Virus record (IMG/VR): IMGVR_UViG_3300045988_128092
Direction: 5' to 3' (one strand)
DNA length: 45,911 nt
Source: a virus
The position numbers were made by a program, and so were the translations under genes. The stretch's first letter is position 1; the number at the start of each line of letters is the position of its first letter. The notes under the pieces are model-generated. The model had not been told where the DNA came from. It saw only the letters and a list, made by a program, of their open reading frames with translations, and did not search any database. Positions 24,484 through 33,528 of the stretch are shown here, one piece after another.

Positions 24484-25709
24484 GCGGCAATATGATTGCG
24501 GAATGCAGTCATCACGACGTATCGGGCTGCATCCCAAAGGTGATTATTCTTGTCTACGGGTTTATTTATCGCCAGCCCGTTTATAGAATCCCACACATAG
24601 GTATTGGCTTCGTTTTTCATGTTCTTGGTCTTGACGCAGTGGATGCGGAAGTTTTTCATGTAGGATATACCGATGGTTATACTATCCTGGAATTTCTTGG
24701 CCTTGATTACATTCAACCCCCGAAGTTGAAGGGAACGCACCATGCCTTCCGGATTCTTGGCGTATTTATCCGCGCTATCTGCTATGGCATATCCGTGTTT
24801 ACCGAGAATTGGGGCCACGATGTTATACAATACCTCGGGATCGTCTACGGGCGAATAAAAGCGTTCATGCAGATATAAGTCACGCCCTCGCACTCCGACA
24901 TGAATAATAGCCGTCGGATCATTTGTGAAGCCGAAGTCGATGCCATAGGCTGTATATTCCAAATCGTCCGGGAAACTGTCGATCCAGTCTATATTGGGGA
25001 ATATTAATCCTTCCTGCGCCGCGCGCTCCCCGAGACCGTATACCTTCCATCTGAATTCGTCGGCGGTTCCTGCTGCGATATTTTCCGGCGTGGGCTCGTA
25101 ACTTTCGATAGTCCTGCGTACGCTGTCAGGGCAGAAAGGATTGTCCTTGTAGGTTGTTTTGGTGAATATGGTATCCGGCTGCCCTTCAAGCTCAAAAACC
25201 CAGTGTTCCGTATATTTGGGGTTCCAGTCGCCAATAATCATGGTTGTACAACGCATCGTGATATTATTGAACTGCGCCGGCGATATGTCGTCCAACATTT
25301 CGTTGAAGTATATGATGTCGCAGTCGTGCCCCTCCTTCACATCCATCTTATCAAGCCCACGGAACCGGATGATGCTGTCGCCTATGTGGTATTCGGGGAG
25401 TATCTTCTCGCTATACATGCTGTCGGGATCATATATCCCGCGGCATTGTAGTTTCTTCTTGAAGTCTCCCAATGCCTTTTCCTTGCAGTCTTGCAATGTG
25501 GAGCGGTAGACATAGATTTTATATGCACCATCACCCGCAGCACAGATGTCATACAGGAAGTCGAAGGTGTCGAAAGTCTTCCCCGAACGGGAACTCCCCT
25601 CGTTGAATATGCGTAGTACGACGCCTTTATTGCGGTACTTGCGGAAGAAGTACAGCATGATCTTGTAGACCTTGCCCCGATATGTGCGTGCATCAAGCTC
25701 CATTTTCAT
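24480..25709 (-). CDS. terL: Terminase large subunit
   Basis: Walker A GSSRSGKT and a nuclease-domain-sized C-terminus. Start is 25709 or 25703, overlapping terS. Confidence 0.9.
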   Translation of the reverse strand: MKMELDARTYRGKVYKIMLYFFRKYRNKGVVLRIFNEGSSRSGKTFDTFDFLYDICAAGDGAYKIYVYRSTLQDCKEKALGDFKKKLQCRGIYDPDSMYSEKILPEYHIGDSIIRFRGLDKMDVKEGHDCDIIYFNEMLDDISPAQFNNITMRCTTMIIGDWNPKYTEHWVFELEGQPDTIFTKTTYKDNPFCPDSVRRTIESYEPTPENIAAGTADEFRWKVYGLGERAAQEGLIFPNIDWIDSFPDDLEYTAYGIDFGFTNDPTAIIHVGVRGRDLYLHERFYSPVDDPEVLYNIVAPILGKHGYAIADSADKYAKNPEGMVRSLQLRGLNVIKAKKFQDSITIGISYMKNFRIHCVKTKNMKNEANTYVWDSINGLAINKPVDKNNHLWDAARYVVMTAFRNHIAA

Positions 25710-26208
25710 TCGTGCTTTGTTTGCCGATGGACTGGATGATAGATGCAGCTTCCGGATCAAGTATGACTTGTACCGTCTCCCGAGGCTTGTTGATGCTCTC
25801 GCCGTTGGTGGTTATATCCTGTTTGTCGGCGAGTTTGAGAACACGTGTAATGACGCCGGAATCGTATATGCCAGCTATTGCGCCCGACAATTGATCGGCT
25901 TCAATTTCTTCGCGCACGCGCGCAATGATGTGGAAAAACTCCTCCCTTTTGCCGTAATCAAAAAATGTGTCACGGAGTATTCCCGCATATACACAGAACC
26001 CAACAATAGTTTTAGGACGTTGGAGTTCGAGGTCTACAAGGCCATGTTTTGTGGGCACTTGTTTTATGATTGGATTGTTCTTTGTCCAATTGGCATATTC
26101 CTCAAACTTGACTTCGAGAGCTTCAGGTGTATATACGCAAGGACGGCCCACTTTGCGGGTGGGCTTGATGGTGTCGTTCGCCTTTGTGTCTTTTACACTC
26201 TTTGCCAT
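25693..26208 (-). CDS. terS: Terminase small subunit
   Basis: 171 aa with N-terminal GRPCVYTPE HTH-like segment, directly upstream of terL. Confidence 0.7.
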   Translation of the reverse strand: MAKSVKDTKANDTIKPTRKVGRPCVYTPEALEVKFEEYANWTKNNPIIKQVPTKHGLVDLELQRPKTIVGFCVYAGILRDTFFDYGKREEFFHIIARVREEIEADQLSGAIAGIYDSGVITRVLKLADKQDITTNGESINKPRETVQVILDPEAASIIQSIGKQSTNENGA

Positions 26209-30494: not shown

Positions 30495-31442
30495 ATGAAA
30501 ACAATTTATCTCTGGGTTTCAGGCAAAGGCTGGACACCCTTTCAGTACAATGAACTTTCTGAATTAGCCGCCGAATTTAAGGCGCGCAATATCAAACTGG
30601 GCAACGAGTGCGAACTGGGCGACGGGTGCAAACTGGGCTACGGGTGCGAACTGGGCGACGGGTGCAAACTGGGCTACGGGTGCGAACTGGGCAACGAGTG
30701 CGAACTGGGCAACGGGTGCAAACTGGGCGACGAGTGCGAACTGGGCGCCGAGTGCGAACTGGGCGACAGGTGCAAACTGGGCGACGGGTGCAAACTGGGC
30801 GCCGAGTGCGAACTGGGCGACAGGTGCAAACTGGGCAACGGGTGCAAACTGGGCTACGAGTGCAAACTGGGCGACGAGTGCGAACTGGGCGCCGAGTGCG
30901 AACTGGGCGACAGGTGCAAACTGGGCGACGGGTGCAAACTGGGCGCCGAGTGCGAACTGGGCGACAGGTGCAAACTGGGCAACGGGTGCAAACTGGGCTA
31001 CGAGTGCAAACTGGGCGACGAGTGCGAACTGGGCGCCGAGTGCGAACTGGGCGACAGGTGCAAACTGGGCGACGAGTGCGAACTGGGCGCCGAGTGCGAA
31101 CTGGGCGACGGGTGCAAACTGGGCTACGGGTGCGAACTGGGCAACGGGTGCAAACTGGGCTACGGGTGCGAACTGGGCAACGGGTGCAAACTGGGCGCCG
31201 GGTGCGATGTTCCGAAATCGCTATTTATCAGCGCATCTCGCCATGCAGTATCCTATTGGGGTGAGGATGTTATTCAAATAGGATGCAAACGCTACACCAT
31301 TTCCGAGTGGCAGAAGCATTTCCGAAAAATTGGCGAGGCCGAAGACTATAGTACCGAGCAGATGGAGGAATACAAAGGGTATATAGACCTGATCGCTACC
31401 ATGCATAAGACGTGGAAGGTTGAGAAGGTAAAGGACAAATAA
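30495..31442 (+). CDS. Hexapeptide-repeat (LG-x-x-C-K/E) x34 protein with unique N- and C-terminal domains
   Basis: 315-aa ORF. Residues 33-236 are 34 consecutive hexads. Confidence 0.7.
   Translation: MKTIYLWVSGKGWTPFQYNELSELAAEFKARNIKLGNECELGDGCKLGYGCELGDGCKLGYGCELGNECELGNGCKLGDECELGAECELGDRCKLGDGCKLGAECELGDRCKLGNGCKLGYECKLGDECELGAECELGDRCKLGDGCKLGAECELGDRCKLGNGCKLGYECKLGDECELGAECELGDRCKLGDECELGAECELGDGCKLGYGCELGNGCKLGYGCELGNGCKLGAGCDVPKSLFISASRHAVSYWGEDVIQIGCKRYTISEWQKHFRKIGEAEDYSTEQMEEYKGYIDLIATMHKTWKVEKVKDK
30591..31202 (+). repeat. 34 x 18-bp tandem repeat, including a perfect 144-bp higher-order duplication
   Basis: Unit TGC-RAA-CTG-GGC-NNC-GRG. 30735-30878 is identical to 30879-31022. 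Confidence 0.95.
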
Positions 31443-31449
31443 CAGCACG

Positions 31450-31562
31450 AGGTGTGTAGCTCAAAGGTAGAGCGGTGCAGGGATGCGAAATAGAAGCACA
31501 GAGGTTGAAAGACCTTGCATTTCCGGGCGCAGGTTGCAGGTTCGAATCCTGCCGCACTTCCA
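31450..31562 (+). tRNA. Aberrant 113-nt tRNA-like gene (acceptor, D and T arms intact; no canonical anticodon arm)
   Basis: Acceptor AGGTGTG/CGCACTT, D arm GCTC-AAAGGTA-GAGC, T arm GCAGG-TTCGAAT-CCTGC, encoded CCA. The central region is about 61 nt. Confidence 0.5.
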
Positions 31563-31920
31563 AGATAGCCACCGCATAGGTGAGGGGTTTGATTGCTGGC
31601 ACTAACCCCGCCGCAAGGCAAAAGCGATCCGTTAGGCCGATAATAGCGTCATCGGCGGGCCGTGGGCAAGGCTCAAAGTGATAGCCCCGCAAAAGCAAAT
31701 AGCCGAATGCGCGAAAGACTGGCATAGGCTTCGAGCTGCGATGATATGAGCGGCGAGAACCACCGGGATAAATCAAGCATTATTATGCCTGGTGTGGCTT
31801 GACCGCCTATCCAGGCTCTATGGCAGGCCTTGCGCACCGTTCTTTCAGCAGTGGGTTATTTCATTTTAGGCGTGAGGTCTGCATCTTGCCCGCGTGCGCT
31901 TTTCGGTGGCGCAGTTTTGA
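31563..31920 (+). ncRNA. Candidate structured non-coding RNA (GC-rich, hairpin-dense, no plus-strand ORF)
   Basis: Hairpins at 31584-31589/31604-31609, 31636-31641/31651-31656, 31761-31767/31788-31794, and 31895-31899/31909-31913 followed by GTTTT. Confidence 0.35.
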
Positions 31921-31981
31921 AATGGAGTTTAAAGTTACAGTGCGCGCGGGCTTATTTGCAACACCTTAAAACAATTATACT

Positions 31982-32278
31982 ATGGAGAAGAACACTTTGA
32001 GGAAGAGGAGATTTCTATGCTTCGACCTGACGCCCAGGTGGAAAATGTGGAAACGGATCGAAGACCTGGAGGTGCGGCTTGCTACATGCCTTTGCGAGCG
32101 CAATGAAGCGGATGGACGCCTTATCGAGCGGGAACACGAGGTATTGGCGCTCACTCAAGCACGTGATACCCTGTACAAGCGCATCGACGAACTGGAAGGC
32201 AGGCTCAGGAAATTCGACCGTACCCGTGGGAAAAGCGGCAAATACATCAAAGGCCATGAAACACGATCCTCAAAATAA
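31982..32278 (+). CDS. Hypothetical coiled-coil protein (98 aa)
   Basis: ATG ORF from the track. Confidence 0.5.
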   Translation: MEKNTLRKRRFLCFDLTPRWKMWKRIEDLEVRLATCLCERNEADGRLIEREHEVLALTQARDTLYKRIDELEGRLRKFDRTRGKSGKYIKGHETRSSK

Positions 32279-32489
32279 AATTCTGGCCTATCTCAAGGCC
32301 GGCGGCAGGCTGACTGTTCGCAAGGCTGAGAGGCTGTACCACACAACGGAGCTGCGCCGGATCATCAGTCGGCTCCGGAAAATGGGATATTCCATTTGCT
32401 CGAACAAACAGAGGGCCGTTACGGAAGACGGACGGCCGACACAGTTTAACGAGTACTATATGCCACAGGTAGCGGATTCCTGCCAATAA
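32256..32489 (+). CDS. Winged-helix DNA-binding protein (77 aa)
   Basis: ILAYLKAGGRLTVRKAERLYHTTELRRIISRLRKMGYSI pattern. In-frame ATG within the 32079 ORF. Confidence 0.55.
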   Translation: MKHDPQNKILAYLKAGGRLTVRKAERLYHTTELRRIISRLRKMGYSICSNKQRAVTEDGRPTQFNEYYMPQVADSCQ

Positions 32490-32505
32490 TCCGCAAATCG
32501 CATTT

Positions 32506-32513
32506 TAAGTTTG
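32506..32513 (+). promoter_or_regulatory. Possible -7 box (TAAGTTTG) upstream of tRNA-Gln
   Basis: Matches TAnnTTTG, but no clear -33 TTTG. Confidence 0.3.
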
Positions 32514-32614
32514 GTATTTGCCATTGGCCTGCTGTGAAGCACGCGGATGGTGTGCCGTCGGCATTAAAGCCCTACGCGGTGGCGTGGGTGAGTGGAGATG
32601 TCGGCGGCATTTAT

Positions 32615-32686
32615 TGAGCTATGGTGTAATGGTTAACACACCGCCCTTTGGAGGCGGTACTCCCGGTTCGAATCCGGGTAGCTCAA
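32615..32686 (+). tRNA. tRNA-Gln (anticodon UUG)
   Basis: Full cloverleaf read by hand: TGAGCTA-TG-GTGT-AATGGTTA-ACAC-A-CCGCC-CTTTGGA-GGCGG-TACT-CCCGG-TTCGAAT-CCGGG-TAGCTCA-A. U1:A72 pair. Confidence 0.85.
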
Positions 32687-33066
32687 CGGGGTTCTAGCCC
32701 TAATGTTGTGAGTTTGATCGGGCGCTTGGGCGTCTGTCACAACGGAAGCTGACAGAGGGTATATCCCTCGACAATCCGAGGCTGCGTGAAGGAAGTAGCA
32801 AGGCCGAAACAAAGGGTATTGAATGCGAATTTTATGCGACAGATATTGAATATACATCTAATATCAAACTAAAGTGTCTTTGCGGAAAGGTATTGATAGA
32901 TCGTAATAGCGCTTGCGACGCTAACGATTCTGATGAATTAGAATGGTTGGAACAAGACTGGGATGACGAGATTATCTTTTGTGCCGATTGTGGTCGTGAA
33001 TACGAGATACAAGGTGGACGCGCCCGGTTAATTTCAAAATAATTTTGCAGATTCGGAATGAATTCC

Positions 33067-33074
33067 TATATTTG
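33067..33074 (+). promoter_or_regulatory. Bacteroidota -7 box (TATATTTG) with -33 TTTG at 33044-33047
   Basis: TAnnTTTG plus TTTG 19 nt upstream. Confidence 0.55.
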
Positions 33075-33078
33075 TAGA

Positions 33079-33216
33079 GCCAAACCGTGCGAGTTCTACC
33101 GACAAGCACAAAAACACATCAGAACCGCTTAAAATAAAGCGGGCTCCTTGAGACAATCGTATCTCGGTATGATTGCACGGTTTGGCGACTTTCGAAAGGG
33201 GCTCGCCTCTTTTGTT
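33079..33216 (+). ncRNA. Structured leader / small RNA closed by a 12-bp long-range stem and ending in a terminator-like hairpin
   Basis: GCCAAACCGTGC (33079-33090) pairs with GCACGGTTTGGC (33175-33186). Internal hairpin CCGCTT/AAGCGG. Hairpin 33095-33112 plus U-run. Confidence 0.45.
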
Positions 33217-33246
33217 ATATATTATTAACTAACTTTTTATCTCACA

Positions 33247-33528
33247 ATGCCAAACCGTGATAAAGTTAGTGGTATCCGGGTAAATAACACCCAGACCACA
33301 CCGCGCGCGAAGAAAAGCCGCACCGCATTCTACCGTTGCCATCTGAAGGCCAACAAACCCCTATTTTCATCTGATAGGGTCGATTACACCAACGTTATCC
33401 GCGCCACGTGCGAGGAGCATGCTTTAGGCTGTTTCCTTGCTCAGTTCCGCGTGCTCTATCCCGCGTATGCTGTCGTTGTCGGCACCATACTCGTAAGCCG
33501 GGTGTTCCCCTCCAAGTCCAACCGTTAA
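33247..33528 (+). CDS. Hypothetical protein (93 aa)
   Basis: ATG ORF. The start codon is embedded in the third GCCAAACCGTG copy. Confidence 0.45.
   Translation: MPNRDKVSGIRVNNTQTTPRAKKSRTAFYRCHLKANKPLFSSDRVDYTNVIRATCEEHALGCFLAQFRVLYPAYAVVVGTILVSRVFPSKSNR

Follow-up and report, generated by a model that had tools for sequence, protein, structure and literature searches.

A probable structured RNA of a new family, bracketed by tRNA-like modules in the early region of temperate human-gut phages

The virus record IMGVR_UViG_3300045988_128092 is a stretch of 45,911 nucleotides (nt), hereafter called the window, whose genes mark it as a temperate phage (integrase at 224-1348, small terminase subunit at 25693-26208). 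Its plus-strand early region begins at ~29.6 kb and encodes a LuxR-type regulator, a hexapeptide-repeat protein and, later, an ERF recombinase. The subject of this study is the interval 31563-31981, between a transfer RNA (tRNA)-like gene (31450-31560) and an ATG at 31982. A previous reading of the letters alone (the sequence-only reading) had singled it out as a candidate large structured RNA, and had located it correctly. No substantial plus-strand open reading frame (ORF) is present, only frames of 33-56 amino acids (aa) with GTG or TTG starts, and the antisense ORFs at 31346-31621 and 31396-31776 exist as that reading had reported. The element lies upstream of the ERF recombinase and replication genes, ~30 kb from the integrase, and all genes and tRNAs flanking it are on the plus strand. 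Comparison with relatives, described below, makes it very probable that the interval encodes a genuine structured RNA; conserved structure covers nearly all of 31563-31958 (Table 1).

Folding of this single sequence gave no such indication. The four local stems listed in the sequence-only reading, and a GCGAAAG string, are where it had placed them, but the GC content of the interval is ordinary for that part of the window (0.52-0.53), and it is not hairpin-dense beyond expectation: its minimum free energy is -145.4 kcal/mol, compared with -143.4 +/- 5.8 kcal/mol for dinucleotide shuffles (z = -0.35). The minus strand also folds no better than dinucleotide shuffles (z = -0.45). The local stems of one sequence, taken alone, are not significant evidence for an RNA; the question was settled by comparison with relatives.

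A first search, anchored on the neighbouring proteins, yielded ~100 IMG/VR loci in which the block 31443-32807 is conserved as a unit; it runs from the tRNA-like gene through the interval, a pair of small genes and tRNA-Gln to 120 nt past the latter. Identity is 97-99% for most copies and likewise for their flanks, and further groups at ~80% and ~70% identity carry many single-nucleotide indels inside the interval. A second search, independent of the neighbours, used exact-pattern scans with the most conserved stretch and found this core pattern in 70 IMG/VR stretches, one GTDB genome (an Alistipes sp. metagenome-assembled genome, MAG) and 110 metagenome stretches, almost all of them from human gut; two of the latter were false positives, leaving ~108. 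IMG/VR, the gut metagenomes and the Alistipes MAG together provided 90 distinct sequences, which fall into 24 clusters at 96% identity, and two added scans, one for a 5'-domain pattern and one for a box pattern, brought in the divergent members L365/L371 and L379 (L numbers denote related loci). The carriers are temperate phages of the human gut and related integrative elements, with Alistipes as the probable host.

The full element was assessed on a 27-sequence MAFFT alignment, in which 11 helices including a pseudoknot were scored. Paired cells made up 94.1%, 13 pairs had changed on both sides, and the covariation score was 0.127; shuffles scored 0.071, with 0/500 reaching the observed value, and sliding the pairing partners by 1-3 columns left at most 0.048. 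For the 3' part, a 42-sequence alignment gave 88.3% of cells paired, 12 double-change pairs and a score of 0.215 against 0.092 for shuffles (0/500 as high) and at most 0.089 for slid partners; the sequences belong to one phage lineage group, so that the shuffle control overstates their independence and the slid-partner control is the fairer one. Compensatory substitutions fall in at least eight helices, the pseudoknot and a long-range helix included, and RNAalifold recovered H1, H2, H3, P6 and H7 unprompted on two alignments. In the two alignments G-U cells exceed A-C cells (62 vs 24 and 109 vs 21), an excess that favours a plus-strand transcript.

A protein-coding explanation is excluded by single-base indels and stops. 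Homologues differ by many 1- and 2-nt indels, a plus-strand frame is open across the element in 0/24 representatives, and no protein frame proved to be conserved among the homologues. Substitutions show no 3-base periodicity, with counts by position modulo 3 of 14/12/7, 30/19/24 and similar. Antisense frames are open in some members, as expected from a purine-rich plus strand, and the antisense ORF has no Pfam match.

The predicted RNA is ~260-400 nt long and modular, with an optional 5' domain, a variable middle, a box, the hairpins P6 and H7, and a lineage-specific 3' domain. At the 5' end, H1 occurs in six stem variants (CACC/GGTG, AGCCC/GGGTT, CACCC/GGGTG, CGCC/GGCG, GCCGCC/GGCGGC and GCCG/CGGC), with alignment pair 11-24 divided between CG (16 sequences) and AU (11). 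H2, one of the stems of the sequence-only reading, is upheld: it does not vary among the 27 sequences in which it occurs, and its loop is one strand of the pseudoknot. The pseudoknot reads GGUGCUCU/AGAGUAUC in the L174 type, where GC has become UA, and other lineages show wobble changes. The module of H2, H3 and pseudoknot is absent as a whole in the L052/L169/L212/L306 types. A GCCTGA/TCAGGC stem of the L052 type was considered as a covarying version of H2 and rejected, the wider alignment placing it at H4 in a lineage without H2, H3 and pseudoknot.

In the variable middle, H4 of the window (GCCGAT 31636-31641/ATCGGC 31651-31656) likewise bears out a proposed stem, with perfect stems of other sequence in its place elsewhere (GTCGGA/TCCGAC, GCCTGA/TCAGGC or GAGAG/CUCUC) and three copies in L365. 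The stems of H5, in at least four versions (GCCGC/GCGGC, GCGGA/TCCGC, GAGCC/GGCTC or GAGAC/GTCTC), surround a conserved GAGAAGAU-like loop, and the region holds the conserved loop string AAAGUGAU; its inner hairpin is GCC-GTGGGCAA-GGC (31659-31672) in the window and has GTC/GAC in L174. The GCAAAUAGCCGAAUGCGCGAAAGA box that follows is retained even in the divergent L365/L379 type and is probably unpaired or engaged in tertiary contacts. The GCGAAAG string, proposed as a GNRA-like loop, turned out to be a conserved box rather than a hairpin loop, and the L174-type lineage has GCGCAACAAAC there. GAAAGA at the end of the invariant box (31713-31718) is complementary to UCUUUC (31841-31846) in a box enclosed by the helix P9; the L174 type, in which the 3' domain is absent, has AACAAA instead of GAAAGA. 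Judged from this complementarity, GAAAGA/UCUUUC could be a tertiary or long-range pairing.

P6, the nearly invariant core hairpin, is built from the pairings CUGG 31719-22/CCGG 31763-66, GG 31727-28/CC 31760-61, UUC 31730-32/GAA 31757-59 and GCUGC 31735-39/GCGGC 31750-54, and is closed by the loop GAUGAUAUGA (31740-49). Alignment pair 50-78 occurs as CG (34 sequences) or UA (7), and pair 39-85 as UG (24) or CG (18). In L365/L379 the stem has been rebuilt (outer GCC/GGC versus ACG/CGU) with loop and flanking boxes unchanged. The proposed stem CACCGGG/CCTGGTG is refuted by these pairings, in that CCACCGG pairs upstream with GACYGG in P6 and GCCTGG pairs downstream with CCAGGC in H7. The latter hairpin is laid out as 7 base pairs (bp), a mismatch and 3-4 bp, with GCCTGG 31787-92/CCAGGC 31811-16 outside and GG(C)/(G)CC inside, and resembles a tRNA minihelix. 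Its loop is T-loop-like (UUGAUCG, UUGAAUG or CUUGACCG, the last in the window), and its tail is UCUA in the window and UCCA in most relatives. Of its 12 pairs 8 are compensatory in the 42-sequence alignment, and nine stem variants occur.

The 3' domain consists of P9 and P10. P9 encloses the conserved box GCAC(A)CGUUCUUUC (31833-46), and more than 8 lineages maintain its duplex with sequences of their own (such as GCAGGCTTTGTGC/GCGCAAAGCCTGC, GCGGGCTTACGC/GCGTAAAGTCCGC and GCGGGCTTTGTG/CACAAAACCCGC). RNAfold forms P10 in each lineage that has a 3' domain, the base appearing as GCCCGCG/CGCGGGC, GCCCTGATGGCG/CGTCAGGGC or GCCCTGCGGC/GCGACAGGGC among others. The last of the originally listed stems, TGCGC/GCGCA, lies inside P10; the base of this longer hairpin is supported, while the stem itself is neither supported nor excluded. 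A U-run follows P10 only in the window, L044, L064 and L306 types, with none in the type B and L173 lineages. In the window lineage P10 looks like a terminator; a simple terminator scan did not list it.

Table 1. Predicted RNA modules and flanking features (positions in the window; helices are given as 5' strand/3' strand)
Feature	Position	Strand	Remarks
Upstream tRNA-like module	31450-31562	+	Rfam tRNA 43.5 bits vs gathering score 29
Linker AGAUAG and H1 (CACC 31570-31573/GGTG 31579-31582)	31563-31582	+	Covarying stem
H2	GGGGTT 31584-31589/AACCCC 31604-31609	+	Within the 31584-31629 module
Pseudoknot with H2 loop	GAUUGCU 31591-31597/AGCGAUC 31623-31629	+	99.4% paired
H3 (GCC-GCAA-GGC)	31610-31619	+	97.5% paired; CG, UG and UA types
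Variable middle, H4 and H5 region	31636-31688	+	Stems swapped between lineages
GCAAAUAGCCGAAUGCGCGAAAGA box	31693-31718	+	(Nearly) invariant in 42 distinct sequences
P6 core hairpin, then GAUAAAU	31719-31769 (hairpin 31719-31766)	+	Helices 97-100% paired
H7, tRNA-minihelix-like hairpin	31787-31820 (stem 31787-31816)	+	Compensatory changes
P9 long-range helix	GCAGGCCUUGCGC 31823-35/GCGUGAGGUCUGC 31870-82	+	12-13 bp duplex
P10 long hairpin, then UUAUUUG	31888-31958 (base GCCCGCGUGCGC 31888-99/GCGCGCGGGC 31942-51)	+	Covarying base
ACCUUAAAA box and start codon of next ORF (31982)	31963-31984	+	Conserved box
98-aa coiled-coil ORF	31982-32278	+	Optional in relatives
77-aa HTH_39 winged-helix gene	32256-32489	+	Pfam HTH_39, E = 2.6e-10
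tRNA-Gln(UUG)	32615-32687	+	ARAGORN and Rfam

Close relatives do not simply lack the element, an outcome that would have spoken against it. In 24 of 64, the central ~150 nt (31629-31778, H4 through P6) are replaced by a ~145-nt cassette with exact boundaries and no detectable similarity to the canonical core, and the 5' domain, H7, P9 and P10 are kept (L004, L005, L095 and similar). The pseudoknot partner in the cassette alleles, AGCAAUU, is still complementary. Two explanations fit, a centre that can be exchanged as a module or a canonical core that can be dispensed with; our reading is modularity rather than absence. The possibility that the alternative cassette (L095/L004 type) is a divergent homologue of the core was discarded, its global alignment score being no better than that of shuffles.

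A tRNA-like or minihelix module precedes the element in every lineage. In the window, the acceptor stem (AGGTGTG/CGCACTT), the D-arm and the T-arm (GCAGG-TTCGAAT-CCTGC) of this module are intact, and an irregular hairpin closed by a GAAA loop stands in for the anticodon arm (48 nt vs 9 expected). ARAGORN made no call for the module at default settings and, with introns allowed, reported a tRNA-Gly(UCC) once an insert of 41 nt, at a non-canonical position, was taken out. The module lacks a 5-bp anticodon stem whose 7-nt loop would present an anticodon, and other alleles have no such arm. Among alleles the acceptor and T-arm are constant, and the inner part is variable, much longer or absent. 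L196 has a bare acceptor/T-arm minihelix (GGAGUGCG-UG-GCAGGUUCGAAUCCUGC-CGCACUCC-CA), in the L161/L173 and L040 types the module is another minihelix-like hairpin whose loop is UUGACCG or UUUGAUCG, and L052 has a normal tRNA-Arg. Insert alleles of the module and core alleles assort independently. G-1:C73 is an acceptor signature of bacterial tRNA-His, and a G at -1 opposite C73, giving an 8-bp acceptor, is seen in several upstream alleles (L185, L196, L204, L169, L218 and the window, 31449-31562), with A73 instead in the modules of the L174 and L003 alleles.

Downstream of the core, the H7 position is occupied by the minihelix in most lineages, by a full tRNA-Gln(UUG) in the L174/L184/L303 types and, in L379, by a tRNA-like element that has a genuine T-arm. 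RNase P favours U at -1 with G at +1, and the junction before H7 has exactly these bases (UUAU followed by GCC).

The order of element and HTH_39 gene persists as HTH_39 protein identity falls from 100% to 41%, and the core is still ~90% identical where the adjacent HTH_39 protein has dropped to 41-45% and the 98-aa ORF stands at 52-56%. Among the 24 representatives the HTH_39 gene lies 170-310 nt downstream of the element in 20, and tRNA-Gln is found downstream in 21, the exceptions being L161 (where the contig ends first), L173 (only a tRNA-Met) and L303 (an untyped tRNA). The ACCUUAAAA box stands ~10 nt ahead of the ATG whether the next ORF is the 98-aa ORF or HTH_39. In the L174 type the element follows an excisionase-like gene and precedes tRNA-Gln, beyond which lie genes of methyltransferase-like and integrase-like type; L174/L184 (IMGVR_UViG_3300029772_000018 and 3300029560_000265) have a different mobile-element backbone, with a sigma-like gene also downstream. 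One 71-kb contig, IMGVR_UViG_3300045988_153547 (L176 and L201), carries the element twice, with the copies on opposite strands of the retrieved stretches, which could reflect concatemeric or chimeric assembly or a genuine duplication.

Several further features were noticed around the element. The hexapeptide-repeat gene upstream (30495-31442) consists of near-identical 18-nt DNA repeats encoding CELGD/CKLGD units (GC 0.65), and many IMG/VR contigs stop within it, apparently at assembly breaks. Beyond tRNA-Gln, the non-coding segment 32688-32807 is conserved and may be a further structured segment; its hairpins are TTGTGA...TCACAA, enclosing a UUUGAUCG motif like those of the minihelix loops, and GAGGG-TATAT-CCCTC. 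Similarity between relatives ends at 32807 and resumes at ~33037, and in this slot (32808-33036) relatives carry different DNA of 0.2-2.5 kb. Some relatives have a ~400-nt insertion right before tRNA-Gln (at ~32607 of the window; L001 1897-2305), in which ARAGORN called a tRNA-Ser with the unusual anticodon ACU.

We compared the element with known RNA families by Rfam 15 scans of the whole window at gathering score, of 31300-33400 at E <= 10 and of 17 diverse related loci. The first returned two tRNA hits only, the second no relevant non-tRNA family (other hits were at chance level, to unrelated families) and the third tRNAs only. The GOLLD, ROOL, HEARO, raiA and OLE models had no match in the window, in the 2.1 kb around the element or in the 17 loci. 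The element is not GOLLD, ROOL, HEARO, raiA or any other curated Rfam family, and the absence of a match places it outside all of these. The suggestion of a large RNA of a known or undescribed class thus loses its ROOL/GOLLD-like half and keeps the other. ARAGORN at default settings found in the window only the tRNA-Gln(UUG) at 32615-32687 and no transfer-messenger RNA (tmRNA), and blastn of 31440-33250 against GenBank phages (INPHARED) gave no match. The motifs GAAAGACCGG, CCACCGGGAU and GAUGAUAUGA prompted comparison with several other RNAs. A one- or two-piece tmRNA was rejected (no ARAGORN or Rfam match, and candidate tag frames broken by 1-nt indels), as were RNase P RNA, T-box, Y RNA/YrlA, K-loop and group II domain V (no Rfam match, and misfits of motif geometry). 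A published catalogue of 10,006 phage candidate RNAs includes DNAVirus_6565, of 76 nt and highly expressed in Alistipes phages (PMC10690425); part of the element may already stand in that catalogue without a name.

Taken as a whole, the observations are best explained, in a judgement that we hold with modest rather than firm confidence, by a new class of phage RNA that resides in a tRNA cluster and is cut out by tRNA-processing enzymes. The element would be transcribed as part of the early operon, since only 7 nt separate the stop of the upstream gene (gene end 31442) from the start of the tRNA-like gene at 31450, a gap so short that it leaves no room for a promoter ahead of the latter. Host RNase P would then cleave on the 5' side of the tRNA-like modules, with 3' trimming or cleavage of the RNase Z type on their other side. 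That the tRNA machinery makes the ends is suggested by the constant bracketing of the core: upstream stands a tRNA-like or minihelix module, and the downstream place is taken by tRNA-Gln, a tRNA-like element or a minihelix. The product would be the ~225-nt core, or a form of ~260-400 nt where H7 stays uncut, and the released core might act as a stable RNA in early infection or lysogeny, alone or with a protein such as HTH_39. We regard this course of release as about evenly balanced between right and wrong.

A number of points weigh against the proposed release. We infer the transcription, the processing and the stability of the RNA alike; the single-sequence fold of the interval does not rise above shuffles, and the covariation comes from the single lineage group mentioned above. 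A short outer helix flanks H7 in many members and could hinder recognition by RNase P. The replacement of the centre in 24 of 64 close relatives would, if it means a dispensable core, count in the same direction. Finally, the position upstream of HTH_39, the ACCUUAAAA box and the terminator-like P10 fit a cis-acting leader equally well.

Such a 5' leader (a riboswitch, an attenuator or a protein-binding leader), controlling the operon of the 98-aa ORF and HTH_39, is the strongest of the alternatives, and we consider it possible, if rather doubtful. The core would sense a ligand, a tRNA or HTH_39 itself, with P9, P10 and the ACCUUAAAA box as the expression platform. The presence of HTH_39 downstream in 20 of 24 representatives even at 41-45% protein identity, the spacing of ~10 nt between the box and whichever start codon follows, and the resemblance of P10 with its U-run to an intrinsic terminator in the window, L044, L064 and L306 types all argue for it, and there is precedent in Aca2 and Aca1, regulators of the helix-turn-helix (HTH) type that bind their own structured 5' untranslated region (PMC13551039). 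However, in L174/L184/L303 the core is directly followed by tRNA-Gln, without HTH_39 gene or 3' domain; P10 lacks the U-run in the type B and L173 lineages; no alternative antiterminator pairing was found; and the RNA is far larger than known Aca-type motifs. A tRNA-like element also lies between core and ORF, and an RNase P cut there would sever the sensor from its mRNA. We prefer release to a cis-acting leader on account of this intervening bracket, of the occurrence of the core without ORF or 3' domain, and of the far better conservation of the core than of the 3' domain.

Decay offers an explanation without function, in which the locus is the remnant of a tRNA array and owes its conserved look to recent kinship and module exchange. 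Most copies are indeed 97-99% identical with their flanks, the flanking hairpins resemble eroded tRNAs, and the core can be replaced by an unrelated cassette. Yet the core is much better conserved than HTH_39 (41-45%) or the 98-aa ORF (52-56%), its helices keep pairing through two-sided changes in many lineages, L365/L379 remodel P6 and retain the loop and boxes, and a pseudoknot would not survive decay, all of which renders this improbable. Very improbable, in our estimate, is a DNA-level element with hairpins that arise in single-stranded DNA, for instance an origin of replication, a site of single-strand initiation or an att site for recombination. It could appeal to the early-region position upstream of the ERF recombinase and replication genes, to an adjoining tRNA 3' half reminiscent of att sites and to an integrase gene nearby in the L174 type. 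More G-U than A-C cells in the helices point instead to one transcribed strand (G-T in plus-strand single-stranded DNA would look alike), the GNRA-type loops (GCAA), the pseudoknot and the long-range helix with strands 47 nt apart are typical of RNA, the integrase of the window is ~30 kb off, and no iterons or direct repeats were noticed in the element by eye, repeat tools not having been applied. P4 CI and P1 C4 are tRNA-like RNAs processed by RNase P, and an immunity RNA of this type, with the variable arm of the tRNA-like module pairing with a downstream leader, would suit a variable inner arm on a constant tRNA-like scaffold in an early-operon leader, but is the least probable of all, given that the longest complementarity of each allele's insert to the 1.5 kb downstream is 7-10 nt (18-100 of 100 shuffles reach as high), that the L196 type has no insert and that insert and core alleles assort independently.

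Built-in tRNA mimicry might be the defining trait of a new class of ornate phage RNA, with an acceptor/T-arm minihelix on each side, some bearing the G-1:C73 signature of tRNA-His, and with a mechanistically new use of the host tRNA machinery. We think this unlikely, and put it forward as a speculation. The RNA could serve as a decoy or sponge for tRNA-targeting defence nucleases or tRNA-processing enzymes, as an aminoacylatable or CCA-tagged RNA, or as an RNA-only assembly similar to the GOLLD/ROOL cages that displays tRNA-like arms. Were this so, a swap of the central cassette would amount to the exchange of an effector or specificity domain.

We file the element as a new family within a known kind, the phage RNAs of tRNA islands exemplified by GOLLD and ROOL. 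These are among the largest functional RNAs of unknown purpose, and a third family, unrelated and smaller, would offer an independent comparison on the question of why ornate RNAs are set beside tRNAs in phages. It brings clear tRNA-like brackets, an abundant lineage of human-gut phages and a natural cassette-swap variant; the minihelix brackets predict that RNase P and 3'-end processing set the ends of the RNA, and the canonical core and the unrelated cassette in near-identical phages amount to a ready-made genetic experiment. Addition of the family to RNA databases would end the reporting of this ~400-nt gap as unannotated or as spurious antisense ORFs.

GOLLD and ROOL occur near phage tRNA islands, and the GOLLD linker sometimes carries tRNAs (PMC12286853). 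Like GOLLD, the element is a large structured RNA with conserved and variable domains, borne by phages and prophages near tRNAs; the window is a temperate phage in which it lies between a tRNA-like gene and tRNA-Gln, and the minihelix or tRNA-Gln between core and 3' domain recalls the tRNAs in the GOLLD linker. It differs in failing to match the Rfam model even at E <= 10, in its size (~260-400 nt vs >800 nt) and in its hosts. ROOL shares with it the phage or prophage origin, the nearness to tRNA islands and the pseudoknots, and has no known protein partner or function (PMC12286853); the element again has no match to the Rfam model, is smaller and has another architecture. The Aca2 and Aca1 motifs are structured RNAs that precede a small HTH gene of a phage within one operon (PMC13551039), as here, where a variable cargo slot (32808-33036) is also nearby. 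However, they are short hairpins within ~100 nt of the start codon, whereas the element is 4-10x larger and also occurs without the HTH gene.

Two other systems are comparable. The tRNA cluster of phage T4 encodes stable RNAs of ~140 nt, species 1 and 2, and tRNA punctuation is a general way in which RNAs are released. The element resembles species 1 and 2 as a non-tRNA RNA among tRNA genes that could be released by tRNA-processing enzymes; its sequence is unrelated to theirs, and its processing is so far a prediction. In eukaryotes, mascRNA of MALAT1 is a tRNA-like structure beside a long RNA and signals where RNase P and RNase Z are to cleave. The element shares with MALAT1 a tRNA-like structure adjoining the RNA, but has tRNA-like modules on both sides, bare acceptor/T-arm minihelices among them.

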